From contig VXWX01000112.1 in NCBI GenBank assembly GCA_009835735.1, positions 1,994-65,993 of the forward strand: a DNA stretch of 64,000 bases. The letters are read 5' to 3'. Shown here in pieces: positions 3,830 through 60,261 of this stretch. The notes beneath the pieces were generated by a model, which saw nothing but the letters and a program-made list of their open reading frames with translations, searched no databases and had not been told where the DNA came from. The stretch's first letter is position 1. Each line of letters starts with the position of its first letter. This DNA comes from Acidimicrobiaceae bacterium (GTDB lineage: Bacteria > Actinomycetota > Acidimicrobiia > Acidimicrobiales > Aldehydirespiratoraceae). A program made the position numbers and the translations under genes.

Positions 3830-5056
3830 CTAGTTGCGGGGTACGTCGCGCCAGGGGATCTCCTTGTCCACCCTGGGCTCACCGGGCAGGCCCAGCACCT
3901 GCTCGCCGAGGATGTTGCGCATTATCTCGCTCGTGCCACCCTCGATGGAGTTGGCCCGAGCCCGCAGGAAGCCGTGGTGAGCGTCCCCGAACTTGCCGTC
4001 GAGAGAGACTGCGGTGGGCCGGCGGAACCCGTAGTCGTAGTCCACCATGCCGCCGGCGCCCTCCAGGTCGATCACCTTGGATGTGAGGGCCTGGTTGAAC
4101 TCGGCCAGCATCAGCTTGCTCACGGACCCCTCCGGCCCCGGATTGCCGGCCCGAGCGTTCTGGAAGGCCCGGACGTTGGTGAGCCGCAGAGCCTCGCCCT
4201 GCACCCACAGCTGCATCACCTCGTCGCGGTGGGCCTTGGTCCGCACTGCGGGATCCATGCTGCGGTAGGCCTCCAGCAGGTTGCCCAGCGGCCCCTCGCG
4301 TCCGGTGGTGGCGCCGCCCACCGCGCCGCCGATGGCGGTGCGCTCGTTCATCAGCGTGGTGAGCGACACGCGCCAGCCCTCACCGACCGCACCGATCCGG
4401 GCCGAGTCGGGCACCCGCACGTCGGTCATGTACACCTCGTTGAACTCGGCCTCGCCGGTGATCTGGCGCAATGGCCGCACCTCAACGCCGGGGGCCCGCA
4501 TGTCGAGCGCGAAATAGGTCAGACCCTTGTGCTTGGGCAACTCCGGGTTGGAGCGGGCCACCAGCATTCCCAGGTCGGCTACGTGGGCCAGCGTGTTCCA
4601 CACCTTCTGGCCGTTCACCACCCATTCATCGCCGTCGCGTTCGGCCCGGGTGCCCAGCCCCGCGAAGTCCGAGCCCGAGCCGGGCTCGCTGAACAGTTGG
4701 CACCACCGCTCCTCCCCGGTGAACAGAGGCCGCAGGTAGCGCCGCTTCTGCTCGTCGGTGCCGTGGGTGAGGATGGTCGGGCCGATCAGCATCATGAAGA
4801 ACGTGGAGGGATCGGCCGGCTGGGCGCCGGCGGCCCGCAGCCGCCGATCGACCGCTCGCTGGAGCTTGCGTGACAGGCCGAGTCCGCCGAAACCCACGGG
4901 ATGGTGCACCCAGGCCAAGCCCGCGTCGTACTGGTGGCCCCGGAATTCGATGTGACTCTGTTCGGCGGGTTCGTGCTCGGCCAGCAAGGCATCGACGGCC
5001 TCGTCGGCGACGCGGGCCTGGTCAGCGGTATCAGCGGGTGAGTCAGTGACTGTCAT
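3830..5056 (-). CDS. Acyl-CoA dehydrogenase family protein
   Basis: 408-aa ORF with an ACAD-like middle and C-terminus (WVVNGQKVWNT..., ...GGTSEIMRNILGE). Confidence 0.85.
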   Translation of the reverse strand: MTVTDSPADTADQARVADEAVDALLAEHEPAEQSHIEFRGHQYDAGLAWVHHPVGFGGLGLSRKLQRAVDRRLRAAGAQPADPSTFFMMLIGPTILTHGTDEQKRRYLRPLFTGEERWCQLFSEPGSGSDFAGLGTRAERDGDEWVVNGQKVWNTLAHVADLGMLVARSNPELPKHKGLTYFALDMRAPGVEVRPLRQITGEAEFNEVYMTDVRVPDSARIGAVGEGWRVSLTTLMNERTAIGGAVGGATTGREGPLGNLLEAYRSMDPAVRTKAHRDEVMQLWVQGEALRLTNVRAFQNARAGNPGPEGSVSKLMLAEFNQALTSKVIDLEGAGGMVDYDYGFRRPTAVSLDGKFGDAHHGFLRARANSIEGGTSEIMRNILGEQVLGLPGEPRVDKEIPWRDVPRN

Positions 5057-5112
5057 GTGTGATTCTCCGGTGGACGTTGCGGTCGCGGTCCGATCGGCGT
5101 CATGCTTGGACC

Positions 5113-5910
5113 ATGCATTCTTACTCCCGGCAGTCCCTTATCGACACCACTGAGGCCTGTTTCACCGAGATTTCGAACTTGTGCGCCGACCTCTCCGACG
5201 AGGAGTGGACCGTGCAGTCGCTGTGTCCTGACTGGACGGCGCGCCAGGCCATCGGCCATGCCGTGGGCGTGGAGGACGTGATCTCCGGATGGGAGATCAG
5301 CACCGACAACATGCCGCCGTTCGAGAAGATGGTTGCCCTCACCGGCGCCTCCGCAGGCATGTCCTCGACCGAGTTCGGCGCCAGGGTGGGCGAGATCTTC
5401 AACGCTCGCCGTTCGGACCTGGCCGCGCTGAGCGATGACGACATCGGGCGCCAGTCGTGGACACCGGTGGGGGTGCAGAGTTACGGGGGCTTCCTGGCCA
5501 TCCGCATCTTCGATATGTGGGTCCACGTGCGCGACTGCACGATCCCGCTGGGGCGGGCCACCGACGACGGCGGCCCCGCGGCGGAGATCGCCTTCGATCA
5601 GGTGGAGCGCTCGATCGGCTACATCATGGGTAAGCGGGTCGGCCTGCCCGACGGCATGAGCCTGCGGGCCGACATCACCGGGCCCGTGCAGCGCCAGATC
5701 GCGGTGGCGGTGGACGGCCGGGCCAAGGCCGTGGATCCCGGCTCGCTGGAGTCGCCCGACGTAGTGCTCACCGCCGACTCGCTGACCTTCATCATGCTCG
5801 CCTGCGGGCGCATCGACCCCCAGTCCAGGATCGACGACGGCTCGATCTCCTGGAGCGGCGACGCCCAATGGGGCGAGCACGCAGCCCGCAGCCTCCGCTT
5901 CACAATGTGA
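5113..5910 (+). CDS. Mycothiol-dependent maleylpyruvate-isomerase-family (DinB-like, TIGR03083-type) protein
   Basis: N-terminal DinB-like pattern (LSDEEWTVQSLCPDWTARQAIGH). ATG at 5113. The stop overlaps the next gene's start (GTGATGA). Confidence 0.6.
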   Translation: MHSYSRQSLIDTTEACFTEISNLCADLSDEEWTVQSLCPDWTARQAIGHAVGVEDVISGWEISTDNMPPFEKMVALTGASAGMSSTEFGARVGEIFNARRSDLAALSDDDIGRQSWTPVGVQSYGGFLAIRIFDMWVHVRDCTIPLGRATDDGGPAAEIAFDQVERSIGYIMGKRVGLPDGMSLRADITGPVQRQIAVAVDGRAKAVDPGSLESPDVVLTADSLTFIMLACGRIDPQSRIDDGSISWSGDAQWGEHAARSLRFTM

Positions 5911-7751
5911 TGACGCCCGGCGGCGGCCCGCCCGCCGGCGCCGACGACTGGATGGCCCTGGTCGAGCAGACGCTGCGAGGTCGCGACCTAGCCGAGCTCG
6001 CCAGCACCACCCGCGACGGGGTCACGATCCAGCCCCTGTACACCGACGGCCCGGAGCGGCCCGCGGCGGCCGCGGTGACTGCCGACCCGAGGCGGTTGGA
6101 GGCGGGCTGGGACGTTCGCCAGTACCACGGCACGGCCGCGGCGACGGCCGACGCCATCGACAGGCTCCGGGCTGAGATGGAGCAGGACTTGGCGGCAGGG
6201 GTCACGTCGTTGGAGCTCGAAGTCCCCGCAGGCTTCGACGTCGACGGACTCGACGCGCTGCTCGACGGTGTCGACGTTGCAGCGACGCCCGTGGCTCTAG
6301 CGCCTCACGCGGAGCTGGATGTGGCTGAGGCCCTCATGGCGCTGGCGGCCCGTCGGGGCGAGGGTCTCGCGCCCGGCAGCTCGCTCGGCATCGATCCGCT
6401 GGGGGAGTGGGCCCGCTCGGGCCGTCGCCCGGACCGCGCACCGGCCGAGGCCTGGACAGCTTCCCTAGTCGCAGGCCCGGGCGCTTCCCGGCTCGGTCCC
6501 GGGATCAGAGTCTTCGTGGTGGACGCGGTCCGCTACTCCGACGCGGGCGCGACCGAGGCCCAGGCGCTGGGGTGGGCGACGTCGACAGGTGTCGCCTATC
6601 TGCGGGGGCTGGTCGAGGCCGGTGTCCCGGTGGACGCGGCCGCCGGATTGATCGGGTTCCGTCTGGCAGCCACGGCCGACCAGTTCGTGACTATCGCCGC
6701 GCTGCGGGCGGCCAGGGTGATGTGGGCACGGGTGGTGACGGCCAGCGGCGGCTCGCAGCAGACGGCACGCCAGTACCAGCACGCGGTCACGGCGTCGCAC
6801 ATGTACAGCCGGCGCGATCCGTGGGTCAACCTGTTGAGGGGCGCCACGACTGCGCTGGCCGCCGGTGTTGCCGGCGCAGACGCCGTGACCGTGCTGCCCT
6901 TCGATCACGCCTCCGGGGCTGCCGACCCGGACAGGGCCCTGGGCCGCAGACTGGCTCGCAACACTCAGCTGCTGCTGCTGGAGGAGTCGTACCTGGCGCG
7001 GGCAACCGACCCCGCGGGCGGGTCCTTCTACGTGGAGTCAGTAACCGAACAGCTGGCGTCGGCGGGTTGGCGGGTATTTCAGGACATCGAGGCATCCGGC
7101 GGGATTGAAACCATCATCGGCGAAGGCGGCCTGGCCGCTGCGATGGCGGAGAGCTGGCGGTCCCGCCTGGGAGCGCTGAGGACCCGGAGCGAGCGACTGA
7201 CCGGTGTGAGCGAGTTCCCGCTGCTCGACGAGCCGGCCCCGGAAGCACTCGCCGAATCGGAGGCCCCGGACGCCGGAGGCCTTCCGGTCAGGCGCTTGGC
7301 CGAGCCCTTCGAGGACCTGCGCGACGCTGCCGACCGGTACCGGATGGCCAGCGGCGAGCGTCCCGCCGTCTGGGTGGCCGCCCTGGGATCGGTCTCGGAT
7401 CATTCAGCCCGCACTACCTGGGCGCAGAACCTGCTGGCCGCGGGCGGGGTCGAGTCGCGGGGCGCAGCCGGGCTCGACTCGCCCATCGCGGCTGCGGCCG
7501 ACTTCGCTGCGTCGGGCCTGACGGCAGCGGTGATAACGGGCAGCGACGACATTTACCGCCTGCGCGGCTCGGGCACCGCCAACGCTCTGGCCGAGTCGGG
7601 CGCGATCTTCGTGGCACTGGCCTGCGATCCCGGCACTCCCGCCGAACTCCTTGAAGAGTTTCGATCAGCGGGCGTTGACGAGGTCTGGCGCGACGGCATG
7701 GACGCGGTGGCTGCCCTCGAGCGCCTCCACCGCGCCCTCGGCCTCGCGTGA
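5910..7751 (+). CDS. Methylmalonyl-CoA mutase small-subunit-like (MutA-like) protein
   Basis: GVTIQPLYTD and FVTIAALRAARVMWARVV are typical mutase-barrel motifs. The C-terminal Rossmann-like domain lacks a clear DxHxxG. Start at ATG 5910 (alternative GTG 5907), overlapping the upstream stop. Confidence 0.7.
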   Translation: MTPGGGPPAGADDWMALVEQTLRGRDLAELASTTRDGVTIQPLYTDGPERPAAAAVTADPRRLEAGWDVRQYHGTAAATADAIDRLRAEMEQDLAAGVTSLELEVPAGFDVDGLDALLDGVDVAATPVALAPHAELDVAEALMALAARRGEGLAPGSSLGIDPLGEWARSGRRPDRAPAEAWTASLVAGPGASRLGPGIRVFVVDAVRYSDAGATEAQALGWATSTGVAYLRGLVEAGVPVDAAAGLIGFRLAATADQFVTIAALRAARVMWARVVTASGGSQQTARQYQHAVTASHMYSRRDPWVNLLRGATTALAAGVAGADAVTVLPFDHASGAADPDRALGRRLARNTQLLLLEESYLARATDPAGGSFYVESVTEQLASAGWRVFQDIEASGGIETIIGEGGLAAAMAESWRSRLGALRTRSERLTGVSEFPLLDEPAPEALAESEAPDAGGLPVRRLAEPFEDLRDAADRYRMASGERPAVWVAALGSVSDHSARTTWAQNLLAAGGVESRGAAGLDSPIAAAADFAASGLTAAVITGSDDIYRLRGSGTANALAESGAIFVALACDPGTPAELLEEFRSAGVDEVWRDGMDAVAALERLHRALGLA

Positions 7752-7772: not shown

Positions 7773-8588
7773 TCAGTCTTCGAAGACTGGGGGGCGCTTC
7801 TCGGAGCGGGCGAGGACGGCCTCCTCGAAGTTGCGGGTGGTCATGCGGACCAGCAACTGGGCGTTCATCTCCGAGCGCATGTGGGCCGCGTAGCTCGACG
7901 CCTCCAACCCCGCCCACAGCATCCTCTTGGTGAGTTCCGTGCCGGGCCGGCTGAAAGCGGCGATGCGGGCACCGATCTCATAGCAGCGGCTCAGCAGATC
8001 GTCGGGTTCCACCGTCTCGCTGACCAGGCCAATGCGGGCCGCCTCGTCGGCGTCGACGTCCCGGCCGGTCAGCATGATGTCGAACGCCCTCGACGAGCCG
8101 ATCGCCCGGGGCAGCGTGAAGCTCAGGCCCAGCTCAGACGCAGTTAGGCCGTTGTTGATGCCGGCCGCCCGGAAGTAGGCCTCGGTGGACGCTATGCGTA
8201 TGTCGCAGGCCAGGGCCAGACACAGACCCCCGCCGATGGCTGCGCCGTTGATGGCCGCGATCACCGGCTGGTGCAGGTCTCCGACCAGTTCGATCACCTC
8301 GTGGAGCCGGTCGGCGGCCCTGTGGGCGATGGTTGAACGGGTGAGACCCTCGACGTAGGGAACCCGGCCCGCGCTCACCATGTCCGCACCGGAGCAGAAT
8401 CCGTGGCCGGCGCCGGTGATCACCACGGCCCGCACGTCGTTGTCGTTGTTGATCCCGCGCAGTGCATCGGCCAACGGCACCATCACGTCGAAGGCCATGG
8501 CGTTCATGCGCTCGGGCCGATTCAGAGTGACCAGCGCTATCTCCGGTCGGGGATGATCGATCAGTACGAAGTCATCGGATGAGGGCAT
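7773..8588 (-). CDS. Enoyl-CoA hydratase/isomerase (crotonase) family
   Basis: VTLNRPERMNAM, VVITGAGHGFCSGADM and AAINGAAIGGG crotonase signatures. Confidence 0.85.
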   Translation of the reverse strand: MPSSDDFVLIDHPRPEIALVTLNRPERMNAMAFDVMVPLADALRGINNDNDVRAVVITGAGHGFCSGADMVSAGRVPYVEGLTRSTIAHRAADRLHEVIELVGDLHQPVIAAINGAAIGGGLCLALACDIRIASTEAYFRAAGINNGLTASELGLSFTLPRAIGSSRAFDIMLTGRDVDADEAARIGLVSETVEPDDLLSRCYEIGARIAAFSRPGTELTKRMLWAGLEASSYAAHMRSEMNAQLLVRMTTRNFEEAVLARSEKRPPVFED

Positions 8589-20554: not shown

Positions 20555-21382
20555 ATGTACCGTTCGCGGGTGCTAGTCGACGCCCACACCCATGTCGTGG
20601 CGATCGATCAGGACGCGTTTCCCTTGTCTCCGGCCGCGCTGCCGGGCAACTGGTACACCGAGGCGCCGTGCACGGCCGAGCGCCTGCTGGCCGAGATGGA
20701 CGGCGCGGGCGTCGATCTGGCCGTGCTGGTCCAGCCGGTCGGTGCGTACTCCTTCGACAACCGCTACGCGGTGGCCGCGGCTACCGAGCACTCCGACCGG
20801 TTCACGGCCGCCTGCTGCGTCGATCCCTACGGCGGATCGCCCGAGGAGGAACTCCGGCGCTGGCTCGACCACGCAGGCGTCGGCGGCGTGCGGTTCTTTG
20901 CGCTGTCGCGGCAGCGGTCCTGGTTGAGCGACCCGAACACATTCGGACTGTGGGAGCAAGCCGCGGCGTCCGGTGCCCATGTGATAGTGACCGTCTTCGA
21001 GAGCCAGTTCGATGAACTCGCCGGAGTGCTCGGGCGTTTTCGGGATGTGGCGGTGTCGATGGACCACTGCGGGTTCTGCGACGTCGCCCGGCCCGAGCCG
21101 CTGGAGGAGCTGGCCCGGTTCGAGAACCTCCACCTCAAGGTGACCACCAACGTGATCGACGCCGCAGCCGCGGCTGAGGGCACGGCCCGACCCTTCGTGT
21201 TGCGGTTGGCCGGAGCTTTCGGTGCGGAGCGGCTGATGTGGGGCTCCGACTTCTGCCAGACCCACGACCGCCCATATCCGGAGCTGGTGCGGGACGGGAT
21301 CGAGGCCTTCGCGGCCCTTCCGGGCCGGCACCAGGACGCCTGTCTAGGGGGAACCGCGCTACGCCTGTGGCGTCCCGGCTAG
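20555..21382 (+). CDS. Amidohydrolase-2 (PF04909-like) family protein
   Basis: The MYRSRVLVDAHTHVV N-terminal metal-binding motif and the C-terminal WGSDF motif. The upstream part of the track ORF is antisense to the ACT gene. Confidence 0.7.
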   Translation: MYRSRVLVDAHTHVVAIDQDAFPLSPAALPGNWYTEAPCTAERLLAEMDGAGVDLAVLVQPVGAYSFDNRYAVAAATEHSDRFTAACCVDPYGGSPEEELRRWLDHAGVGGVRFFALSRQRSWLSDPNTFGLWEQAAASGAHVIVTVFESQFDELAGVLGRFRDVAVSMDHCGFCDVARPEPLEELARFENLHLKVTTNVIDAAAAAEGTARPFVLRLAGAFGAERLMWGSDFCQTHDRPYPELVRDGIEAFAALPGRHQDACLGGTALRLWRPG

Positions 21383-22408
21383 CGGGTCGATCTCGTTGAG
21401 GAGGGGCTCGCCGGCGACGTAGCGGGCGAGGTTGTCAGCGAAGACTCGGTGGGCCGACTCGAAGAAGCGGGTGGGCTCGGTGGAGCAGTGGGCCGAGATG
21501 TAGATGTTGGGGACGTCCCAGAGGGGCGAGTCCTCCGGCAGGGGCTCGACCGCGGTCACGTCGAGAGCGGCGGCCCGGAGCTTGCCTGAGCGGAGGGCGG
21601 CCACCAGAGCGGGCTCGTCGACCAGCGATCCCCGGCCCACGTTCACGAACATCGAGCCGTCCTGCATCGCCGCGAAGGCCGACGCGTCGAACAGCTCGTG
21701 GGTCTCGGGCGACTCCGGGACGGCCGCGACCACGATGTCACAGCGCCCCAGCATGTCGTGGAGCCCGTCGGGTCCTAGTACCTCGTCGGCAAGATCGCTT
21801 CCGGCTGCGCTGTGACGCACGACGATCACGTCCAGTTCGAAGGAGCGGGCGCGGCGGGCCACCGCCTGATTGATGGGTCCGAAGCCCACCAGCCCGATCG
21901 TGGAGCCCGCGAGGTTGTGGCCGAACACCGGGTGCCATCGCCTCTGTTGCTGGATTGTGTCCAGCCGGCGGGTCCGCTTGAACTCGCCCAGTATGCGGGC
22001 GAACACGAACTCGGCGATCGAGGTGGCGTTGGCCCCGGAGGCGTTGGTCAGGCGAATGCCCGCCTCGCGGAGCCCGGCCGAGGTGAGATGGGCGACACCG
22101 GCGGCCAGGGCCTGCACCCAGCGCAGTCGTGGCGCGACCGCGGCCACGTCGAAGGGCAGGTCGAGCGTGATGCAGCACTCGATGCGAGCGAAGGCGCGCC
22201 GCTGGGCCGCGGTGAGCGAAGGGGCCAGATGGCGCACGGCGTCGTAGGGCGGGACTCCCCGGCTGGAGCGGAGTTCCCTGGACTCCTCGTAGGGCTCCAC
22301 GACAATCTCGATGGGGGGATCGATGGCTGTCAGCTCGGCCAGGTGCCGGTCGAAGTCGAGGTTCCATTCGCTCGGATACAGGACTCCGACGACGAGCGGG
22401 TCGGTCAT
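21359..22408 (-). CDS. D-isomer-specific 2-hydroxyacid dehydrogenase family (NAD-binding)
   Basis: GSTIGLVGFGPINQAVARR (GxGxxG) and the later NVGRG motif. Its ATG shares a base with the stop of the upstream selenoprotein gene (TGATG). Confidence 0.8.
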   Translation of the reverse strand: MTDPLVVGVLYPSEWNLDFDRHLAELTAIDPPIEIVVEPYEESRELRSSRGVPPYDAVRHLAPSLTAAQRRAFARIECCITLDLPFDVAAVAPRLRWVQALAAGVAHLTSAGLREAGIRLTNASGANATSIAEFVFARILGEFKRTRRLDTIQQQRRWHPVFGHNLAGSTIGLVGFGPINQAVARRARSFELDVIVVRHSAAGSDLADEVLGPDGLHDMLGRCDIVVAAVPESPETHELFDASAFAAMQDGSMFVNVGRGSLVDEPALVAALRSGKLRAAALDVTAVEPLPEDSPLWDVPNIYISAHCSTEPTRFFESAHRVFADNLARYVAGEPLLNEIDPLAGTPQA

Positions 22409-22923
22409 CAGGATCCGGTCAGGAGACGCAGTGTCGGCTCCACCGCTTCCTCCGCCCGTTCGATGACTGCAGCCTCGTCGATGCCGCCCAGGGGATGCTC
22501 GACGGCGACGATCCGCAGGTCGGGCAGGTCCAGCGTCTCGGCTACGCCAGCGGCCAGAGACTCGAAACTGGTGGTCGCCACGAGGACCGTCGGAGTGCCC
22601 GCTGACTCAAGGTTGACGGAGTCGTGGACACTCCACGACGTGCAACTTCCTCAATCGGCTGAGCCGGTGAGAACCACCTCGGCCTCGGCCAGCCGGGCCA
22701 GCAGATCGTCGGGCGCGGGCAGGGCTGCGTTCTTGCGCTCGACGAGGCCCACCGTTGCGCCGGTACGGGCCGCGAGGCCCTCGGCCAGTCGTTGCAGCAG
22801 CAGGCCGGCGTTCGGTTTGGAGTTGTCGAGTATCCCGATGCGCTTGCCAGCCAGCGTCGGCCCGGTAACGGCGCGAGAAATGGCGGCCGGTCCTACCGCT
22901 CCCACCGGGGCATAGATCCTCAT
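22408..22923 (-). CDS. UGSC-motif selenoprotein (171 aa with in-frame UGA = Sec at 22653..22651)
   Basis: Track ORF 22651..22923 ends at a TGA, but the same frame stays open for 80 more codons to the TGA at 22410..22408. Sequence context is ...VVLTGSAD-U-GSCTSWSVHD... (UxxC redox motif). A hairpin starts 11 nt after the UGA. The terminal stop is coupled to the next gene's ATG. Confidence 0.8.
22621..22639 (-). promoter_or_regulatory. Candidate bacterial SECIS hairpin
   Basis: The minus-strand RNA GUCGUGGA-GUG-UCCACGAC forms a perfect 8-bp stem, or 7 bp with loop AGUGU containing GU. It begins exactly 11 nt 3' of the in-frame UGA. Confidence 0.65.
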
Positions 22924-22965
22924 CGGTTCCCTCCTTCGGAGATCCCTGTGGGTTCCGTCATGGGC

Positions 22966-24069
22966 TCAGACCTCCACCGGCACGGTGGCGCTCCTGGTCA
23001 TACCCCAACTCGGGATGACCGAGCTGTGCTTTCCCGGTCCTCCCACCACGATGATCTTGATGTTGCCCCGATGTTCGGTGACGGACATCGTCGCGTCGTC
23101 ATCCAGGGCCTCCTGCCACGGCGCCCACGCCCTGAGCGCGAACGCGGCCCGCAGGTCGCCGACCCGCATCTGAGCCCGCTCGTGGAGATAAGAGGCCACC
23201 CGGTCGCGCGTCCACCCGGCGCCGTCACATGCCGCGGCGTGCTCCGGGCACAGCATCACGAAGAACTCACCGGAGCTGACCGGCGCATTGTTGGACCCCA
23301 GTGAGGTCATGGCTGAAGCGGCCTTGTCGAGGATGGCGGCGGGATCCTTCGACTCCATGTCGTGAAAGTTGTGGGGCGCTTCGCCGCAGTGGACGGTGAC
23401 CGCGGAGGCCGCAGCGACTCCGACGCTGGCTGCGTATCCGCCCCACGGCGACTCGGCCAGGTTCTCGGCCACGCAGTAGGTGTACTTGGCCGGTCCGCCC
23501 TGGGTGGAGGCGTCGCCCGCACCGGGGATCGCCCCGGCGACGTGGAGCAGAATGAGCCTCAGCGCCCGTCCTGTGGCCGCGTTGGCCACGTTGCCGGGGC
23601 CGAAGGCGCCCAGCCCCGCGTTGTAGCCCGCGGTCTGGGCGATCTCGCCGTGCACGACGAGCAGCGGCGCCACCGGATGGGTGGTGGCGTTCACGCCTCG
23701 CAGGTTGATCTCGGGATGGGCCAGCGCCCGCACCGCCGCGACAAGCACAGGCAGGTGCTCGGGGCGGCAGCCGGCCAGCACCGCGTTGACAGCGATCACC
23801 CGGCGGGTAGCCACACCGGACCGGGGCGGCAGGACGGTGACGGGCTCGTCGGGATCCGCGTTGCAGTTGGCGAGCATCGCGTCTACCCGCTCGGGCGTGG
23901 GGGCCACCAGCGGCAGCCCGTCGCCCCAGCCCCGCTCGGCGTAGCACTCCCGGACCGCTTCGGGGTCGTCCGAGGCGATGTCGAGCATCTCCAGCGGGTC
24001 TGCCACGCCCCCCAGTCTGCTGCCTGCTGGACGCTCCTGCTCCAAGACGAGCGTGAACTGATATTTCAC
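22966..24069 (-). CDS. Conserved hypothetical protein (367 aa), first gene of the selenoprotein operon
   Basis: Long ORF with coding-type GC3. It contains ERGWGDGLPLVAPT and several Cys. I do not recognise the family. The GTG start at 24069 is uncertain. Confidence 0.6.
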   Translation of the reverse strand: MKYQFTLVLEQERPAGSRLGGVADPLEMLDIASDDPEAVRECYAERGWGDGLPLVAPTPERVDAMLANCNADPDEPVTVLPPRSGVATRRVIAVNAVLAGCRPEHLPVLVAAVRALAHPEINLRGVNATTHPVAPLLVVHGEIAQTAGYNAGLGAFGPGNVANAATGRALRLILLHVAGAIPGAGDASTQGGPAKYTYCVAENLAESPWGGYAASVGVAAASAVTVHCGEAPHNFHDMESKDPAAILDKAASAMTSLGSNNAPVSSGEFFVMLCPEHAAACDGAGWTRDRVASYLHERAQMRVGDLRAAFALRAWAPWQEALDDDATMSVTEHRGNIKIIVVGGPGKHSSVIPSWGMTRSATVPVEV

Positions 24070-24145
24070 TACATGAAAGGCAATGATAGAGATACAGGTG
24101 GCGCATCAGCGCGAAGGGTGATCGACGTTGCACTAGCCTGCGGAG

Positions 24146-25681
24146 ATGAGCGCTGAGCGTCGAAGGCGGCGGCCGCGCCAGGCCGCGGTCCCCGAGCCGA
24201 GCGGGCCTGTCCAGCCGCCGTGGCGGCTGCATGAACGTCGGTTCGAGCCGACGTCGATCGTGAGCGAGGACGAGCTCGAGGCCATCCACGCCGCCTCGCT
24301 TACGGTGCTGCGCGACACCGGCATGGAATTCCTGCATCCGACGGCCCGGACAATGTGGGCCGAGGCCGGCGCCAAGGTCGACGGTGATCGGGTGCGCTTC
24401 GACCCTGAGATGATCACCGAACTGGTGGCCACCGCCCCTGGTGAGTTCGTACTGCACGCTCCCGACCCGACGCGCCATTTGCCGATGGGTGGGCGCAATG
24501 TGGCCTTTGCCTCGGTGGCCAGCCCTCCGAACGCGGCCGACCGGGCCGGCGGCCGGCGCACCGGCAACCGGGAGGACTTCCGGCGGCTGGTCATGCTCGG
24601 GGAGGTGCTCAACTCCGTCGCCTTCCAGGGCGGCTATCCGGTCGAGCCGGTGGACGTGCACGCATCGGTGCGTCACCTAGTGGCCACCCGCGACCTGCTC
24701 ACTCTGACAGGCAAGGCCCTCCACGCCTACTCGCTGGGAGCGCAACGCAACCGCGACTGCTTGGAGATGGTGCGCATCGTGCGCGGCGTCACCGACGACG
24801 ACCTTGAGACGCAGCCGTCGATCTTCACCGTGGTCAACTGCAACTCGCCGCTGCGACTCGATACACCCATGCTGGAGGGGATCCTCCAGTACTCGTCTCG
24901 CAACCAGGTGGTGGCGGTTACCCCGTTCACGCTGGCCGGGGCGATGGCGCCGGTCACGGTGGCTGGCGCGGTGGTGCAGCAGAACGCTGAGGCCCTGGCC
25001 GGCATGGCCTTCTGCCAGTTGGTGAGGCCGGGTTCGCCGGTGATCTATGGAGGATTCACCTCCAATGTCGACATGCAGTCGGGCGCCCCCGCCTTCGGCA
25101 CCCCCGAGTACATGCAGGCGGTTCTGCTCGGGGGACAGCTCGCTCGCCGGTACGGCGTCCCCTACCGGTCCTCCAACGTCTGCGCGGCCAACGCGGTCGA
25201 CGCTCAAGCCGCCTACGAGAGCGTGTTCTCGCTGTGGGCCGTGGTGACGGGTGGTGCCCACATGGTGATGCACGGGGCGGGGTGGATGGAGGGCGGGCTG
25301 CAGGCCTGCTACGAGAAGATGGTCATCGACGCCGACATGATCGGCATGGTGGGGGAGTTCCTGCAGCCCCTCGCGACCGACGCCGACTCGCTCGCGGTCG
25401 AAGCCATCGACGAGGTCGGCCCGGGCGGGCACTTCTTCGGCACGGCCCACACGCTGGCCCGCTTCCGCGACGCGTTCTTCAAGCCGATGGTGTCGGACTG
25501 GCGCAACTACGAGTCCTGGGTCGAGGCCGGCTCGCCCACCGCTCTAGACCACGCCGAGCGCCTCGTGGGTGAGCTCCTGGGCGCCTACGAGCCGCCTCCG
25601 CTGGCCGACGACGTCCGAGCCGAACTGGACGACTTCACCGACCGGCGCATAGCCGAGGGCGGAGTCGACACCGACTTCTAG
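24146..25681 (+). CDS. MttB-superfamily (trimethylamine methyltransferase family) protein, non-pyrrolysine
   Basis: 511 aa with an Arg-rich N-terminus and a TIM-barrel MttB-like sequence (paralogue at 40401..41933). There is no in-frame TAG. Confidence 0.8.
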   Translation: MSAERRRRRPRQAAVPEPSGPVQPPWRLHERRFEPTSIVSEDELEAIHAASLTVLRDTGMEFLHPTARTMWAEAGAKVDGDRVRFDPEMITELVATAPGEFVLHAPDPTRHLPMGGRNVAFASVASPPNAADRAGGRRTGNREDFRRLVMLGEVLNSVAFQGGYPVEPVDVHASVRHLVATRDLLTLTGKALHAYSLGAQRNRDCLEMVRIVRGVTDDDLETQPSIFTVVNCNSPLRLDTPMLEGILQYSSRNQVVAVTPFTLAGAMAPVTVAGAVVQQNAEALAGMAFCQLVRPGSPVIYGGFTSNVDMQSGAPAFGTPEYMQAVLLGGQLARRYGVPYRSSNVCAANAVDAQAAYESVFSLWAVVTGGAHMVMHGAGWMEGGLQACYEKMVIDADMIGMVGEFLQPLATDADSLAVEAIDEVGPGGHFFGTAHTLARFRDAFFKPMVSDWRNYESWVEAGSPTALDHAERLVGELLGAYEPPPLADDVRAELDDFTDRRIAEGGVDTDF

Positions 25682-25713
25682 TAGAGCTGAGGGACCGTGA
25701 GCGTTGCGCACTG

Positions 25714-27015
25714 ATGCGTGGTCGTGGTGTACTTCGCGCGGTGACAACGCTCCAGGGCAGCGCCCGCTACGTAGACGAGGGGTTCTGGGCGGCGACCCGC
25801 CGACCGCTGGATCAGGCGACAGGTCTGCCGCCGGTCGCCTACACGGGTGACGACTTCTTCGAGGTCGAGCAGCGCAGGCTGTTCGCCCGGGCCTGGGTTG
25901 CGGTGGCGTCCGCGTCGGAAGTGGCCGAGCCGGGCCGTCTGCTGGTGCGTTCTGTCGGCGGTACGTCGGTGCTCATCACCCGGGACCGCGACGGTGTGCT
26001 TAGGGCTTTCATCAACTCGTGCCGTCACCGGGGCACCGAGCTGGCCTCCGAGGACTGCACCGTGTCGCGGATGATCCGGTGCCCGTATCACCGCTGGGGA
26101 TACGCCCTAGATGGTTCCCTGGTGGCGTCCCCGCTGTTCGACGAGGTGCCCAGGGCGGACTTCGACCCGGCTGAGCTGTCGCTGTTGCCGGTGCGGGTGG
26201 AGGCCTGGGGCTTGGATGTGTTCGTCTGCCTGGACGAGGCCACACCGCCGCTGGCCGAGTGGCTGGGCGACCTGCCCGAGCGGATGGCCGGCTACGGCTT
26301 CGACGGCTGGGTCGTCCACGAGAAGTGCACCTTCGACGTGGCCGCCAACTGGAAGCTGATCACCGAGAACTTCCAGGAGTACTACCACCTGGCGTGGGTC
26401 CATCCCGAGCTGGCCAAGGTGTCCCGGGTGCGTGACCACTACCGCTACCAGGGGCCGGGGCTGTACTGCGGCCAGACCACCACCCCGGTGTCGAGCGACG
26501 AGCGCGACGACTGGCTGGTGCTTCCGAACGCTCCCGGTCTGGACTCCTCCGACAGCGTCAGCGGGCGGTTCGTGGCCGTGTTCCCCAACCTGACGCTGGC
26601 AGTGCTGCCCGGCCACGCCTTCGTGATCCGCCTCGAACCGCTGTCGTCGGGCGCCACCCGGGAGCACTGCACTCTGCTGCTGCCGTCGTCCACACCGGCC
26701 GAGCAGTACGGCGACGCCGCGGCCGAGACGCTCAAGTTCTGGATCGAGGTCAACAACGAGGACATCGACATCTGCCAGCGGTCCCACCGGGGGCTGGCGC
26801 TCGGCGGGGCGCCGCCCGGGCCGCTGTCACCCCGCTTCGAGGAGCCCCTGCACCGCTTCCAGAACATGGTGGCCGACTGTCTCACTGCCGACTCGCTCGC
26901 CGACGGGCTGAGGATCCCGCCCGGCGACGGCCCGGACGACGGGCCCCGTTACGGCTGCGGGCCGAACCCCGCGCTGCCCGCCATCGACGCCCACCGTTGG
27001 TCGACTACGGGCTGA
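25714..27015 (+). CDS. Rieske [2Fe-2S] non-heme-iron oxygenase alpha subunit (GbcA/Stc2-like N-demethylase candidate)
   Basis: Rieske motif CRHRG...CPYHRWGY and mononuclear-iron motif EYYHLAWVHPE. Confidence 0.8.
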   Translation: MRGRGVLRAVTTLQGSARYVDEGFWAATRRPLDQATGLPPVAYTGDDFFEVEQRRLFARAWVAVASASEVAEPGRLLVRSVGGTSVLITRDRDGVLRAFINSCRHRGTELASEDCTVSRMIRCPYHRWGYALDGSLVASPLFDEVPRADFDPAELSLLPVRVEAWGLDVFVCLDEATPPLAEWLGDLPERMAGYGFDGWVVHEKCTFDVAANWKLITENFQEYYHLAWVHPELAKVSRVRDHYRYQGPGLYCGQTTTPVSSDERDDWLVLPNAPGLDSSDSVSGRFVAVFPNLTLAVLPGHAFVIRLEPLSSGATREHCTLLLPSSTPAEQYGDAAAETLKFWIEVNNEDIDICQRSHRGLALGGAPPGPLSPRFEEPLHRFQNMVADCLTADSLADGLRIPPGDGPDDGPRYGCGPNPALPAIDAHRWSTTG

Positions 27016-27046
27016 TCAGCGCGAGCTGGCTGGTGGGAGGGTCGAG

Positions 27047-29599
27047 TTGAAGTCCGGCGCGCAGGTTGTGGTGGTCGGCGGGGGAGTGGTGGGCGCGAGC
27101 GTGCTCTACCACCTCACCAAGGCGGGCTGGACCGATGTGGTGCTGGTCGAGCGCACCGAGCTCACCGCCGGCTCCACCTGGCATGCCGCCGGTGGCATGC
27201 ACACCATCAACGGTGATCCCAACGTGGCCAAGCTGCAGCGCTACACCACCGAGCTGTACGCCGAGATCGAGCGCATCTCGGGTCAGGACTGCGGCATTCA
27301 CACGCCCGGCGGTGTGCTGCTGGCCGACACGCCCGAGCGGCTCGACTGGCTGAGGATGACGCACGCCCGGGGCCGCTACCTGGGCCTGGACACCGAGATG
27401 ATCTCGGTGTCCGAGGCCGCCGAGCTGGTCCCGCTGTTCGACCCCGAGCATTTCGTGGGGGCGATGCTGGAAGCCCACGAGGGCCACGTCGACCCGGCGG
27501 GCGTGACCCATGCCTTCGCCAAGGCCGCCCGGATGGCGGGGGCGGAGGTGTACCGGGGCACCTGGGCCCGCGCGATGTCCAGGCGCGCCGACGGGTGCTG
27601 GCGTGTGGAGCTGTACGACACTGCCAGCGGCGACGACCGGGGCGAGATCGTCTGCGAGCATGTGGTCAACTGCGGGGGCCTGTGGGCCCGCGAGGTGGGG
27701 CGCATGGTGGGGCTCGAGCTGCCGGTGCTGGCCATGGAGCACACCTACATCGTCACCGAGGCGCTGGATGTGGTGATGGAGCACAACCAGCGGACCGATG
27801 CCCGGATGATGAACGTCATCGACTTCGGCGGCGAGATCTACATGCGCCAGGAGGGCAACGGCATGCTGCTGGGCACCTACGAGCAGGCCTGTCTGCCGTG
27901 GTCGCCCCGGCAGACGCCGTGGGACTTCGCTATGAGGCTGCTGCCGGAGGACCTCGACCGCATCTCCGACGCGCTGGAGGTCGCCTTCGCTCACTTCCCG
28001 GTGCTGGGCACCGCTGGGATCCAGCGGGTGGTGAATGGACCGTTTACCTTCGCCCCCGACGGGAACCCCCTGATCGGCCCGATCAGAGGCCTGCCGGGGT
28101 ACTGGACGGCCTGTGCGGTGATGGCCGGGTTCTCGCAGGGCGGAGGTGTGGGTCTGGCCGTGGCCAACTGGATCACCGCGGGTGACCCCGGCTTCGACGT
28201 GTGGGCTATGGACGTGGCCCGCTTCGGCGACTACGCCACGGTCGCCTACACCGACGCCAAGGTGCGCGAGAACTACTCGCGCCGGTTCCGGATCACGTTC
28301 CCCAACGAGTTCCTGCCCGAGGGACGGGGCGTTCAGACATCGCCGATCTATGACCGGCTGGCCGACGCCAACGCGGTGTGGGGCGACGCTTTCGGTCTGG
28401 AGTCGGCGCTGTGGTTCCAGGAGGAGGGTCTGGAGCCGGTCGAGGAGGTGACCTTCGGACGTTCCAACGCCTGGGACCGGGTGCGGGCCGAAACGCTGGC
28501 CGTGCGGGCCGCCGTCGGCATGATGGAGATCACCGGCTTCGCCAAGTTCCTGGTGTCGGGTCCGGGGGCTCGAGCGTGGCTCGACCGGCTGCTGGCGGGT
28601 CGGATACCGATCCCGGGCCGGATGGCGCTCACGCCGATGACCAACCCGGCCGGCAACCTGGTCGGGGATCTGACGGTGGCCTGCCTGCCGGCCGCGCCCG
28701 GCCGGGCCGAGGGACCGGCCGGAACGATGGTGGGCGGGGTGACCGGCAACGTGCGGGATGGCGAGCGGTTCGCGGTGTTCGGCTCCGGCATCGCCGAGCG
28801 CTACTACGAGCGGTGGTTCGACGAGCGGCTGCCGGCCGACGGCTCGGTGAGCTACCAGACGCTCGGAGCTGAGATGTGCGGCTTGGCCATCGCCGGGCCG
28901 GCGGCGCGGACGCTGCTGGCCGAGGTCACCGACGCCGATGTGTCGGCTCACGGCATGCGGTTCATGGCCTTCGGCGAGATGGAGGTGGGGTTGGCACCGG
29001 TCTGGTGTGGGCGGATCAGCTTCACCGGCGATCTGGGCTATGAGTTGTGGATGCCGGCCCGCTACCAGCGGTACGTGTTCGACCTGCTGCGGTCGGCGGG
29101 GGAGGCGCATGGCCTGGAGCTGTTCGGACTGCACGCCCTGAACTCTCTCCGCCTTGAGAAGGGGTTCGGATCGTGGCTGCGGGAGTACCGGCCCGACTAC
29201 GACCCCTTCGAGGCCGGCTTGGGCCGCTTCGTGCGCATGGAGAAGGAGTTCATAGGCCGGGACGCGTTGATCGCCAAGTACGGCGAGAGCGGCCCGCCCG
29301 GCAGGGTGGCTCCGACAGGTCTGCGCCTGTGCACCTGGACGGTTGATGTCGGCGCGGGCCCGGATGCCTGCGACGTGATCGGCGACGAGCCGGTGTGGCA
29401 CGACGGCGAGGTCGTGGGCTGGGTCACCTCCGGCGGCTACGCCCACCACAGCGAGGCGTCGGTGGCCATGGGCTACGTCCCTGCCGAACTGGCTGGCTCG
29501 TCGGGCCAGTTCGAGATAGAGATAGTCGGCATCCGCCGCCCCGCCAAGCCGGTCGAGAGCTGCTTATGGGACCCCGAAGGCTCGCGCATGAGAGCCTGA
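27047..29599 (+). CDS. Dimethylglycine/sarcosine dehydrogenase family (FAD domain fused to GcvT-type folate-binding domain)
   Basis: VVVVGGGVVGASVLYHL dinucleotide fold and STWHAAGG (covalent-FAD His context). C-terminal aminomethyltransferase-like domain. TTG start preceded by GGGAGGG. Confidence 0.85.
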   Translation: MKSGAQVVVVGGGVVGASVLYHLTKAGWTDVVLVERTELTAGSTWHAAGGMHTINGDPNVAKLQRYTTELYAEIERISGQDCGIHTPGGVLLADTPERLDWLRMTHARGRYLGLDTEMISVSEAAELVPLFDPEHFVGAMLEAHEGHVDPAGVTHAFAKAARMAGAEVYRGTWARAMSRRADGCWRVELYDTASGDDRGEIVCEHVVNCGGLWAREVGRMVGLELPVLAMEHTYIVTEALDVVMEHNQRTDARMMNVIDFGGEIYMRQEGNGMLLGTYEQACLPWSPRQTPWDFAMRLLPEDLDRISDALEVAFAHFPVLGTAGIQRVVNGPFTFAPDGNPLIGPIRGLPGYWTACAVMAGFSQGGGVGLAVANWITAGDPGFDVWAMDVARFGDYATVAYTDAKVRENYSRRFRITFPNEFLPEGRGVQTSPIYDRLADANAVWGDAFGLESALWFQEEGLEPVEEVTFGRSNAWDRVRAETLAVRAAVGMMEITGFAKFLVSGPGARAWLDRLLAGRIPIPGRMALTPMTNPAGNLVGDLTVACLPAAPGRAEGPAGTMVGGVTGNVRDGERFAVFGSGIAERYYERWFDERLPADGSVSYQTLGAEMCGLAIAGPAARTLLAEVTDADVSAHGMRFMAFGEMEVGLAPVWCGRISFTGDLGYELWMPARYQRYVFDLLRSAGEAHGLELFGLHALNSLRLEKGFGSWLREYRPDYDPFEAGLGRFVRMEKEFIGRDALIAKYGESGPPGRVAPTGLRLCTWTVDVGAGPDACDVIGDEPVWHDGEVVGWVTSGGYAHHSEASVAMGYVPAELAGSSGQFEIEIVGIRRPAKPVESCLWDPEGSRMRA

Positions 29600-29604
29600 G
29601 TCCA

Positions 29605-29610
29605 TATAAT
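29605..29610 (+). promoter_or_regulatory. Candidate -10 hexamer (TATAAT) in an AT-rich spacer
   Basis: Perfect TATAAT about 50 nt upstream of the GTG at 29660, inside the only visibly AT-rich stretch of this region. No convincing -35. Confidence 0.25.
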
Positions 29611-29659
29611 TTCATGTAATTGCGTTGCTATCTAGAACTGCACGAGCTACGGTCGTGTC

Positions 29660-29890
29660 GTGGACATCAACACGGTCTCGCAGATTGTGACAGTCGTGCT
29701 GGCCGTCCTCGCCATCATCTGGCACCAGCAGCGCACCACCGACAAGCTGCGTGAACGTCTCGACCACATGGAACAACGGCTAGCCCGCATCGAGGGCTTC
29801 CTTGGTATCGGCATGCCTGCCGCCGCAGCCGCGAAGGCTCCCGGAGCGGACCTGGCCCGCCAGCCTCCAGAAGACTCCGAAGAGGACTGA
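29660..29890 (+). CDS. Small hypothetical membrane protein (one TM plus coiled-coil-like and acidic tail)
   Basis: 76-aa ORF with a hydrophobic N-terminus (IVTVVLAVLAIIW) and coding-like third-position bias. Confidence 0.45.
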   Translation: MDINTVSQIVTVVLAVLAIIWHQQRTTDKLRERLDHMEQRLARIEGFLGIGMPAAAAAKAPGADLARQPPEDSEED

Positions 29891-29909
29891 CTGCCGGCAG
29901 CTTCCGCTG

Positions 29910-30365
29910 CTACTCCCAGTCCCAGGCCCAAACCCGGTCGCAGGCCTCCACGCCTGGGTCGAGCGTGTGGTAGTCGGCGGCGTCGGTGGTGAACAGGGCC
30001 CCCTCGGTGGTCAAGCCGGTGGGGAGGTCTAGGGTGCCGGCGCAGATGGCGATGTGGTTGGTCTGGTCGGGACGACCCTCCGCGACCTTCCAGAACAGCG
30101 ATCCACCGCACTCCCGGCAGAAGCCGTAGGCCACGTTGGGATCGTCAGCCGGGTGGTGCCAGGCCAGAGTGGCGTCGGACACGAACCTTAGGTCGGAGCG
30201 CTTGCAAGCCGATCCAGCCATGAAGTGGCCGGTCCAGCGGCGGCAGCGCCAGCAGTGACAGTTCCAAACTGAGCGGATCGGCCCGTGCACCTCGTAGCTG
30301 ACCGCGCCGCACAGGCAATGGCCCGAGGGCGGCGACTCCGGCTGGGGCTGAGCGTTCTCATTCAT
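29910..30365 (-). CDS. GFA-family (glutathione-dependent formaldehyde-activating / CENP-V-like) protein
   Basis: Zn-binding Cys pattern CLCGAVSY...[11 protein letters not shown]...CRECGG. ATG at 30365. Confidence 0.8.
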
Positions 30366-30463
30366 GGCAGTCCCTTCGTAGTTGGAGGCGGGCAGCGGTA
30401 GGGTCGCGATTGTTGCACGGCACGGGGCCAACCGGCGTCCCGGTGCGAGCTCATGAGGTGACT

Positions 30464-32158
30464 ATGGCAGACCGAGACCGCCGCTACGACTACGTGATCG
30501 TGGGCGGGGGCTCGGCTGGCTGCGCGCTGGCCAACCGGCTCAGCACTGATCCGGGCACCTCGGTGCTGGTGCTGGAGGCGGGCCGGCGGGACTGGCGCTT
30601 CGACGTTTACATACACATGCCCGCAGCCCTGTCGTTCCCCATCGGCAACCGCTTCTACGACTGGCAGTACACTTCCGAGCCCGAGCCCCACATGGGCGGC
30701 CGGCGCGTCTACCACGCCCGGGGCAAGGTGCTGGGCGGGTCCTCCAGCATCAACGGCATGATCTTCCAGCGGGGCAACCCCCTCGACTACGAGCGCTGGG
30801 CCGCCGACCCGGGCATGGGCAGCTGGGACTACGCCCACTGCCTGCCCTACTTCAAGCGCATGGAGCGCTGCCTGGCCGGCGACGACCACAGCGGTCCCGA
30901 CGGGACCCGGGGCAGGGGCGCCTACCGGGGCGACCGGGGCCCGCTGGTGCTGGAGCGGGGCCCGGCCACCAACCCCCTGTTCGAGGCGTTCCTGGAAGCC
31001 ACCGAGCAGGCCGGCCACCCCCGGACCGCCGACGTCAACGGCTACCGCCAGGAGGGTTTTGCCGCCTTCGACCGCAACGTCCACCGGGGCCGGCGCCTCA
31101 GCGCCTCCCGGGCCTACCTGCACCCGGTGCTCAGCCGGCCCAACCTCCATCTCGTCACCCGGGCCCTCACCACCAAGGTCCTCTTCGACGGCGACCGGGC
31201 CACCGGCGTCACCTACACCAAGGGCGGCCGCAGCCGAACCGTGAACACCGGCGAGGTGATCTGCTGCGGCGGGGCCATCAACTCGCCGCAGCTCCTGCAA
31301 CTCTCCGGCGTTGGTCCGGCCGATCTGCTGCAGAGCCACGGCATCGACGTGGTGGCCGACGTTCCCGCGGTGGGCGCCAACATGCAGGACCACTTGGAGG
31401 TGTACGTGCAGTACGCCTGCAAGCAGCCGGTGTCGATGCAGCCGCACCTGGCCAAGTGGCGCCGCCCCCTGATCGGACTGCAGTGGCTGGCTCGCCGTGG
31501 CCCGGCCGCGACCAACCACTTCGAGGCGGGCGGGTTCATCCGCAGCAACGACGACGTTGCCTATCCCAACCTCATGTTCCATTTCCTGCCCATCGCCATC
31601 CGCTACGACGGCTCGGTGCCCGAGGGCGGACACGGCTACCAGGTGCACGTGGGGCCGATGTACAGCAACTCCCGGGGGACCGTGGCCATCGTCTCGACCG
31701 ACCCCCGGATCAAGCCGGCGCTGCGCTTCAACTACCTGTCCACCGACGAGGACCGCCGCGAGTGGGCGGAGGCCGTGCGCCACGCCCGGCACATCCTCAA
31801 CCAGCCGGCCATGGACCCGTTCAACGGCGGGGAGGTGTCGCCCGGCCCGGATGTGAGCACCGACGAGGAGATCCTCGACTGGGTGCGCAGCGACGCCGAG
31901 ACCGCCCTGCACCCCTCTTGCACCGCCCGCATGGGCCTGGGCGACGACTCGGCGCTGCACCCGGACTCGCTCGAGGTTCACGGCACGAGGGGCCTGCGGG
32001 TGGTGGACGCCTCGTCGATGCCGTACGTGACCAACGGCAACATCTACGCCCCGGTGATGATGTTGGCCGAGAAGGCCGCCGACCTGATCCTGGGCAACAC
32101 CCCGCTGGCTGCCGAACCGGTGGACTTCTACCGGGCGGACTCAACGGGTGTGACCTAA
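30464..32158 (+). CDS. betA: Choline dehydrogenase-like GMC oxidoreductase
   Basis: [21 protein letters not shown]-terminus, [13 protein letters not shown] and a GMC C-terminal active-site region (HPSCTARMG). ATG at 30464. Confidence 0.8.
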
Positions 32159-41933: not shown

Positions 41934-41994
41934 GTTGGCTCGTTCATGGTCTAGTTGTCTCCGGATCGTGAATTCGGCGATTGTCGAGCGATGT

Positions 41995-43971: not shown

Positions 43972-43972
43972 G

Positions 43973-44863: not shown

Positions 44864-45237
44864 TGGGGGTCTCCTTCGGAGTCGATGCTGCGATCGGGAT
44901 CCCAGCCGCCGGTCTTGACGAACTCGTCGAGCCGCTCCCGGGGGAACGCCTCCTCCAGGGAGGCTGCGGCCGCCATGGCGGCCTCCTCGGGGTCGGCGGC
45001 GCCCGAGGGGATCACGGACCGGCGCCACTCGCCGACGTACTGCGAGGCCTGGGTCTTGCCCGCCACCATGGCGGCCCGGTCGATGGCTCTCTGGAACCGG
45101 CGGGGGAGGATGCGCTGGACCCGGTCGGCGCCGGAGCCGCCGTTGACCTGGGCGGGTATGTCGCGCCAACTGATCAGCACCAGGCTCCCGTCGTCGTTGC
45201 GGCGCCTGCGCCCGCCTCGCCCCGCTGGAGGACTCAT
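44860..45237 (-). CDS. Small 'virulence factor'-family (PF13769-like) protein of unknown function
   Basis: The 125-aa ORF contains ISWRDIPAQV...RFQRAIDRAAM...EWRR, recalled as the signature of this family. ATGA overlap with the upstream gene and GTGA overlap with the downstream gene. Confidence 0.6.
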   Translation of the reverse strand: MSPPAGRGGRRRRNDDGSLVLISWRDIPAQVNGGSGADRVQRILPRRFQRAIDRAAMVAGKTQASQYVGEWRRSVIPSGAADPEEAAMAAAASLEEAFPRERLDEFVKTGGWDPDRSIDSEGDPQ

Positions 45238-60251: not shown

Positions 60252-60261
60252 CACTGTGGCC

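Follow-up and report, generated by a model that had tools for sequence, protein, structure and literature searches.

Gene structure at the locus

The sequence analysed here, referred to as the window, is a stretch of 64,000 nucleotides from contig VXWX01000112.1 of an Acidimicrobiaceae bacterium, and the gene under study lies on its minus strand between a conserved partner gene and a dehydrogenase gene (Table 1). From the ATG at 22923, the frame runs through 90 codons to a TGA at 22653..22651, after which 80 sense codons follow in the same frame before a second TGA at 22410..22408. Translation gave the residues ...LTGSAD-*-GSCTSWSVHD around the first TGA. The original prediction held that this codon is read as selenocysteine (Sec, U) within a UxxC redox motif, SAD-U-GSC-TSW, and that a 171-residue UGSC-motif selenoprotein is hidden behind an open reading frame (ORF) of 90 residues. 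The coordinates and the peptide were both reproduced from the sequence, and the proposal is supported by profile matches, homologues, the codons of the selenocysteine insertion sequence (SECIS) and the constraint on the tail. It is very probable that 22923..22408 is one gene, encoding a 171-residue UGSC selenoprotein in which the UGA at codon 91 is recoded to Sec.

The final A of the UGSC stop codon is also the A of the dehydrogenase ATG (TGATG), as had been noted before. This arrangement was said to make sense only with read-through of the UGA; the overlap is real and the argument is suggestive, but it is not proof. Local sequence features, namely the open frame, the hairpin and the overlap, are by themselves weak evidence, and the weight of the case for recoding therefore lies on the comparative data.

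Table 1. Positions of the UGSC gene, its elements and the adjoining features in the window
Feature	Position	Strand	Remarks
UGSC-family gene, predicted selenoprotein	22408..22923	-	171 codons; predicted Sec at codon 91; stop TGA 22410..22408
In-frame UGA (U91 of the U-G-S-C motif)	22651..22653	-	alignment column, TGA-containing homologues, independent assemblies
Shine-Dalgarno-like GAAGGAGGG	22928..22936	-	ahead of the ATG at 22923; read from the sequence
Spacer GGAAGUUGCAC	22650..22640	-	11 nt after the UGA
Predicted SECIS hairpin GUCGUGGA-GUG-UCCACGAC	22621..22639	-	8-bp stem, apical GU; within codons T95-D101
Hairpin 5' arm GUCGUGGA	22639..22632	-	
Hairpin loop GUG	22631..22629	-	
Hairpin 3' arm UCCACGAC	22628..22621	-	
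Conserved partner gene	22966..24006	-	346 residues; probable GTG start at 24006; directly upstream of the UGSC gene
D-isomer-specific 2-hydroxyacid dehydrogenase	21359..22408	-	349 residues; PF02826, 168 bits
Divergent intergenic region	24007..24259	.	between the partner-UGSC-dehydrogenase operon (-) and the MttB-family/Rieske/dimethylglycine dehydrogenase (DMGDH)-like/BetA cluster (+); gene map

Family membership and conservation of the in-frame TGA

The 171-residue product, with U replaced by C, was searched against hidden Markov models (HMMs). It matched NCBIfam NF041046 'UGSC family (seleno)protein' with 131.5 bits (cut-off 125; model positions 2-146 of 147) and Pfam PF24696 'UGSC' with 152.6 bits (cut-off 25; model positions 2-171 of 172). 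A 'UGSC-containing' family had been named in the original prediction, and these matches, together with the literature, confirm it. Furthermore, a protein search returned 237 homologues of about 175-180 residues, mostly from metagenome-assembled genomes (MAGs) of Acidimicrobiia, some of which carry the NCBI name 'UGSC family (seleno)protein'. Homology is full-length and does not stop at the TGA position. In an alignment with 32 homologues of the cysteine (Cys) form, the TGA column is an invariant Cys within TG[SA]AD-C-GSCT, and the invariant C-terminal residues T117, T118, F120, R137, H143, P144 and G146 are all present in the window protein, the 80 downstream codons being conserved as protein.

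The family is computationally predicted (PMC13188914, PMC1976440). It was described in 2007 as a selenoprotein of unknown function, present also in Hyphomonas neptunium (PMC1976440), and the Global Ocean Sampling (GOS) survey of 2008 counted 255 Sec forms and 21 Cys forms and ranked UGSC with the predicted selenoprotein families that are most abundant in aquatic metagenomes (PMC2398784). A 2026 review, in which NF041046 is cited, still lists it as uncharacterised (PMC13188914). The window gene thus joins a family known since 2007/2008 and holds little surprise for a specialist. Compared with family members such as ABI76733.1 of Hyphomonas neptunium, it shows the same motif column, a length in the range of about 171-180 residues, and the hairpin and spacing found in 114 other Sec forms; nothing essential differs.

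The occurrence of the same TGA in other genomes was surveyed with a degenerate DNA pattern for T-G-x-A-D-TGA-G-S-C-T, using one genome per species, which yielded at least 119 stretches. As a control, metagenome contigs were scanned with a version of the pattern in which TGY replaces TGA, and 105 distinct Cys forms were obtained. Among the matches listed, the TGA-containing motif was present in genomes of more than 100 species, and 120 of 123 matches were UGSC homologues across the TGA, most of them full-length, amounting to 115 distinct proteins. The hosts of the Sec form were Acidimicrobiia, Methylomirabilota/Rokubacteria, Myxococcota, Bacillus/Neobacillus, Spirochaetes and Gammaproteobacteria, including two cultured Bacillaceae, Neobacillus bataviensis LMG 21833 and Bacillus sp. 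1P10SD.

SECIS hairpin and constraint on synonymous codons

An 8-bp stem with GU in its loop had been predicted exactly 11 nt past the UGA; the sequence agrees, and the same element recurs throughout the family. The Sec-form consensus ACG UCG UGG AGU NUC CAC GAC gives an 8-bp hairpin with a GUN loop, and the window (ACG UCG UGG AGU GUC CAC GAC) is identical to it. The two forms of the family differ sharply in their codons. At Ser+5, UCG was used by all 115 Sec forms, whereas the 105 Cys forms had mostly Ala, with Ser in 22 and UCG in 20 of these. At Ser+7, AGU was found in 115/115 Sec forms and in none of the Cys forms, which used AGC (79), UCG (15), UCC (10) and UCA (1), and this contrast offers a clean control, supplied by nature, for an RNA signal that is concealed within a reading frame. 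At codon +8, NUC was fixed in 115/115 Sec forms, and the Cys forms had GUG (55), GUC (44), CUG (4) and others (2). In the 22 Cys forms with the same T-S-W-S peptide, codon +8 ended in G in 15, and Ser+7 was AGC without exception (22/22; Fisher p = 7e-26, a value that overstates independence because the sequences are related, although the Sec forms nevertheless span several phyla).

Moreover, full 8/8 pairing was found in 109 of 115 Sec forms and in 5 of 105 Cys forms, and the outer stem pair covaries in the Sec forms (G-C 102, A-U 6, G-U 1). The minimum free energy fold of the UGA and 60 nt included the hairpin in 105/113 Sec forms vs 7/103 Cys forms. The synonymous bases fixed in the Sec forms are exactly those that form the 8-bp stem and the apical G-U. 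There is, accordingly, a constraint at the RNA level that is specific to the TGA-containing UGSC members.

The rules of the Escherichia coli fdhF SECIS, an 11-nt spacer before a minimal stem with an apical G-U, are well established. The UGSC hairpin shares with that element its place inside the coding sequence directly after the UGA, the 11-nt spacer and the apical G-U. It differs in having a perfect 8-bp stem and a 3-nt loop (GUN) without the bulged U, and in a sequence that is set jointly by a conserved peptide and fixed synonymous positions. The earlier claim of an fdhF-like geometry therefore stands for the spacing and the loop GU, but not for the bulged U. The isolated hairpin of the window had a folding energy of -11.1 kcal/mol, and a 71-nt region folded barely better than shuffled sequences (z = -1.5). 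In 22590-22653 (-), the 3' arm of the hairpin can also pair about 25 nt farther downstream, which gives an alternative fold.

Alternative readings of the in-frame UGA

Several results weaken the local evidence for the recoding of this UGA to Sec or count against it. Inter-stop intervals of at least 80 codons make up 20% of all such intervals in this window of 69% G+C, and the UGSC ORF has less G+C at third codon positions (0.76-0.79) than its neighbours (about 0.88). The alternative fold of the window UGA and 60 nt, at -24.2 kcal/mol, is more stable in silico than the SECIS hairpin, and no relevant Rfam family was matched, either at the gathering threshold or at E <= 10. In addition, no tRNA was found in the 64-kb window, tRNA-Sec was likewise missing from every locus fetched, and a Pfam survey of the window genes gave no SelA, SelB or SelD. 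The papers cited here on the family contain no experimental selenium incorporation for any UGSC member.

Among the competing explanations, the one that survives best is that the UGA is recoded to an amino acid other than Sec, either Cys, through a tRNA-Sec-like tRNA and SelB, or Trp, through a near-cognate tRNA, and that the hairpin is a general recoding signal. SelB-dependent UGA-to-Cys systems (allo-tRNAs, selC-like tRNACys) have been reported in some bacteria and would require the hairpin too, and the present data do not by themselves name the inserted residue. However, surveys rank the family with the most abundant selenoproteins, one Sec-form locus has a SelD-like ORF beside its UGSC gene, and reading UGA as Cys would bring no obvious advantage over TGC, which many relatives use. 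Recoding to an amino acid other than Sec is thus very improbable. UGA is also not reassigned as a whole, because TGA is the ordinary stop of 25 of the 42 window genes. That this organism decodes the codon as Sec is suggested by three features: the TGA has been kept, the SECIS is present and the tail is constrained.

The SelD-like ORF belongs to a Litorivivens sp. MAG (L048, JBFKDP010000212.1). It comprises about 740 residues at ~3854-6077 (-), a few kb at most from a Sec-form UGSC gene, and matched a SelD probe with E 1e-38. This was the sole locus matched by the probe, which had no match in the window. The ORF may be an Ndh-SelD fusion, a type of protein mentioned in PMC2398784.

According to a second explanation, the gene is a pseudogene in which a Cys codon has become TGA, so that the cell makes either a 90-residue fragment or no product, and the 240 nt downstream decay. 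A single base change from TGC or TGT is enough for this, the public annotation shows a 90-residue hypothetical protein, sometimes with a 57-residue ORF, and Sec machinery was not seen in the window. These points are outweighed by the behaviour of the tail. When the window was compared with L075, L110, L056, L021 and L088 (80-93% identical DNA) as well as L028, the ratio of nonsynonymous to synonymous substitution rates (dN/dS) was 0.04-0.30 over the 80 codons after the TGA, equal to or below that of the 90 codons upstream, and the differences from L110 in this part fell 4/3/40 on the three codon positions. Both patterns show that the tail is translated and, as protein, under purifying selection. 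Furthermore, the downstream part contains no frameshifts or stops, and relatives with 7-20% divergence in DNA have kept the TGA. It is shared by 115 distinct homologues from several phyla, and only TGA-containing genes have fixed the synonymous codons that form the SECIS. The pseudogene explanation is already contradicted by these data and is very unlikely.

A third explanation follows the gene callers, whose exact output is two small genes, one of 90 residues and one of 57 residues from an internal start. The locus is annotated in this way in ENA assemblies, and each piece matches PF24696. NCBI MAG records hold the 90-residue piece only, and identical copies of it are deposited in GenBank as 'hypothetical protein [Acidimicrobiaceae bacterium]' (e.g. 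MXW99177.1, MYB87103.1). However, the two pieces follow one another within a single domain (positions 2-171 of 172), the Cys-form homologues are all single chains of about 175 residues, and the predicted fold is one continuous five-stranded sheet. Moreover, the 23 codons between the TGA and the second start hold the most conserved motif, GSCTSWSVHD. Two separate genes are therefore hardly credible, and the public records split or shorten the gene, as the original prediction had expected of standard gene callers.

Finally, metagenome assemblies do contain errors, but an erroneous TGA is next to impossible here, since four independent assemblies (L001-L004), which derive from two or more BioSamples, are identical at this locus, TGA included, the TGA is kept in relatives with 80-93% identical DNA, and the exact 90-residue fragment is recorded from 10 contigs.

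Partner protein

The gene directly upstream of UGSC encodes a conserved protein with no Pfam or NCBIfam family, Pfam having been tried to E <= 10. A longer call of 367 residues from 24069 is probably an over-extension. The search for its homologues gave 1726 proteins, the best of which were 72-88% identical and about 346 residues long, and a HMMER pass over 1.8 billion representatives found 5805 partner clusters at 50% identity. In 98/115 Sec loci and 77/105 Cys loci, the partner and UGSC are direct neighbours with the same orientation, and contig ends cut most of the others. In-frame fusions, with the partner joined to the C-terminus of UGSC, are found in Rokubacteria, Bacillaceae and some Gammaproteobacteria. 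Among the representatives, fusions were found in the order UGSC-partner (P0246, P0387) and in the order partner-UGSC, truncated at the Sec codon (P0249, P0274). The existence of two independent orders of fusion speaks for a physical complex of the two proteins. In addition, P0250 (695 residues) consists of the partner and a C-terminal pyridine nucleotide-disulfide oxidoreductase domain (Pyr_redox_2, residues 387-677).

Further arrangements were seen among the homologues. P0259 (717 residues) and P0370 (741 residues) look like tandem duplications of the partner domain. The 3.5-Mb contig L005 carries two partner-UGSC pairs, both Cys forms, divergent and side by side at 6236-6799 (-) and 8001-8543 (+), and the module can therefore be duplicated within a genome. 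A UGSC/Unknown_1 fusion is drawn in Figure S1A of the GOS survey, and Unknown_1 may correspond to the partner.

The structural model of the partner had a predicted local distance difference test (pLDDT) score of 79 and a predicted template modelling (pTM) score of 0.81. Its best Foldseek matches in the PDB, class I fumarate hydratase and Toblerone-fold hydrolases (best E 3e-3, TM 0.24), were too weak to be used, and a sequence search of solved structures gave no meaningful match for either UGSC or the partner. Five Cys are invariant among close relatives of the partner. An iron-sulfur protein was considered and dropped, as none of the five is at least 97% conserved across 164 diverse partners. 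The residues conserved in these 164 partners were D28, T36, T66, N73, N100, T107, T108, R146, E180, D215 and N238, together with a GGxG near the C-terminus.

Predicted fold and distant relatives

The fold was predicted with AlphaFold2 for the homologue P0001 (59% identical), from an alignment headed by P0001, and not for the window protein itself. The model (pLDDT 89.9) has five consecutive beta-alpha units, with the C/U-G-S-C motif in the loop after strand 3 and in the first turn of helix 3. In Foldseek searches of the PDB, it matched flavodoxin-like domains (flavodiiron flavodoxin domains, azoreductases and flavodoxin) with TM scores of about 0.45-0.5, and no thioredoxin was among the best 50 matches. 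The UGSC product is accordingly predicted to be a five-stranded flavodoxin-like alpha/beta domain. Thioredoxin-fold UxxC selenoproteins (Trx-like, Prx-like, DsbA-like) share with it a UxxC at the N-terminus of a helix, but their beta-alpha-beta-alpha-beta-beta-alpha topology is different from the five beta-alpha units of the P0001 model. This prediction contradicts the published guess that UGSC is 'Trx-like'.

A recurrent weak similarity was found to selenoprotein B (GrdB/GrdF/GrdH/PrdB; PF07355, TIGR01917, TIGR01918). The GrdB model TIGR01917 was weakly matched by 27 of 33 UGSC members (best E 1.2e-5), and TIGR01918 by 20 of 33. The window protein itself reached 17.5 bits against a TIGR01917 cut-off of 602, at model positions 311-402 of 431, a region that we take to hold the Sec of GrdB; it had no match to PF07355, even at E <= 10. 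By sequence, the relation to GrdB and PrdB, which are themselves UxxC selenoproteins, is one of remote similarity and not of membership. Selenoprotein B works with a second, substrate-binding protein, and UGSC can be likened to it in this respect. However, UGSC has 171 residues compared with about 430, and its hosts are mostly Acidimicrobiia, Rokubacteria and Myxococcota, which are not known as amino-acid fermenters, whereas those of selenoprotein B are amino-acid-fermenting clostridia. GrdA, GrdE/PrdA and GrdC/GrdD were absent from the UGSC neighbourhood maps, and PF09338 was likewise unmatched, because the partner matches no Pfam family.

Two side observations concern single members of the family. 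P0091 and P0104 (Cys forms of about 270-280 residues) have an extra C-terminal domain of about 90 residues with a CxxC (alignment A1, columns 200-284), and one of the 33 aligned UGSC proteins weakly matches NifU (TIGR02000, E 0.015).

Neighbouring genes

The dehydrogenase downstream of UGSC is more commonly a short-chain dehydrogenase/reductase (SDR), and in the lineage of the window a 2-hydroxyacid dehydrogenase is found instead. An SDR gene started directly after UGSC in 41 of the 153 loci with enough sequence, and of 219 other UGSC loci, 20 had a homologue of the 2-hydroxyacid dehydrogenase in the stretch retrieved. Amidohydro_2 genes were near UGSC in 32 of 219 loci.

Back to back with the window operon lie genes at 24260-32158 (+) and 29910-30365 (-), which encode an MttB-family methyltransferase (with no in-frame stop), a GbcA-like Rieske oxygenase, a DAO-FAO_M-GCV_T protein resembling dimethylglycine/sarcosine dehydrogenase, GFA and the choline dehydrogenase BetA (799.5 bits, over the cut-off). 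Together, these genes look like a cluster for choline/betaine demethylation. Such a quaternary-amine/choline catabolic cluster is the context of the window operon and its close relatives only: MttB, Rieske and DMGDH-like neighbours were found in 2-5 of 114 Sec loci and in 0/105 Cys loci. Suggestive as they are, these neighbours are limited to close relatives and are therefore no evidence for the function of the family.

Farther away, 40401-46759 (-) is a complete corrinoid-dependent methyltransferase system, comprising a second MttB-family gene (PF06253, 723 bits), a RACo-type corrinoid reductive activase, DUF1638 and a B12-binding corrinoid protein. At 55871-59241 (+), an uninterrupted ORF for a molybdopterin oxidoreductase (PhsA/DMSO-reductase-like) is followed by a 4Fe-4S dicluster protein; the absence of an in-frame TGA rules out a Sec-containing formate dehydrogenase. 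At 60115-61425 (+), two ORFs of 217/218 residues stand in the same frame with one TGA between them and resemble the alpha and beta subunits of sulfopyruvate/phosphonopyruvate decarboxylase, below cut-offs. This TGA was considered as a recoded UGA and is read instead as an ordinary junction of two subunit genes. Apart from the UGSC codon, the in-frame TGAs of the window with coding signal on both sides (10199, 14803, 22968, 60766) were taken as gene junctions or shadow frames and not as signs of further selenoproteins.

Proposed mechanism and significance

In the proposed mechanism, the hairpin with its 8-bp stem and GUG loop, built from the codons for T-S-W-S-V-H-D, would signal Sec at the UGA. 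By analogy with E. coli fdhF, SelB-GTP-Sec-tRNASec would bind the hairpin and deliver Sec to the ribosome. Judging from the model of the homologue, U91 would lie just before the N-terminus of a helix with C94 in its first turn, and the pair could cycle between a selenol/thiol and a selenenylsulfide as a redox couple. UGSC would most likely be the redox-active subunit of a two-subunit enzyme, and the 346-residue partner (24006..22966) may be the other, substrate-binding subunit. The downstream NAD-dependent dehydrogenase appears to be translationally coupled, and re-reduction of the enzyme or conversion of its substrate may proceed through NAD(P)-dependent enzymes.

A two-subunit selenoenzyme is proposed because fusions occur in either order, one fusion to a thioredoxin-reductase-like domain is found, and an NAD(P)-dependent dehydrogenase usually lies downstream. 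It counts against a two-subunit reductase that this idea is drawn from gene linkage and that the partner is without a recognisable fold relative. A more far-reaching proposal is that UGSC and its obligate partner form a widespread two-subunit selenoenzyme, a distant cousin of protein B of glycine/betaine/proline reductase, which would use its Sec-Cys pair to isomerise or reductively cleave a small organic acid or amine in organisms that are not known to ferment amino acids (such as Acidimicrobiia, Rokubacteria and Myxococcota), and whose substrate here could be linked to the adjacent betaine/choline demethylation genes. We offer this as a speculative suggestion that is unlikely to hold.

For the annotation of these genomes, the true product of the locus would be a selenoprotein of 171 residues, and the same annotation error recurs across many MAGs. 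Beyond the known family, the present analysis adds the codon contrast between Sec and Cys forms, the evidence from the partner and its fusions, and the leads from the fold and from GrdB. The partner without a family (more than 5800 clusters at 50% identity), the fusions in two orders and the link to selenoprotein B may serve as handles on the function of UGSC, and the cultured carriers Neobacillus bataviensis LMG 21833 and Bacillus sp. 1P10SD make experiments possible.

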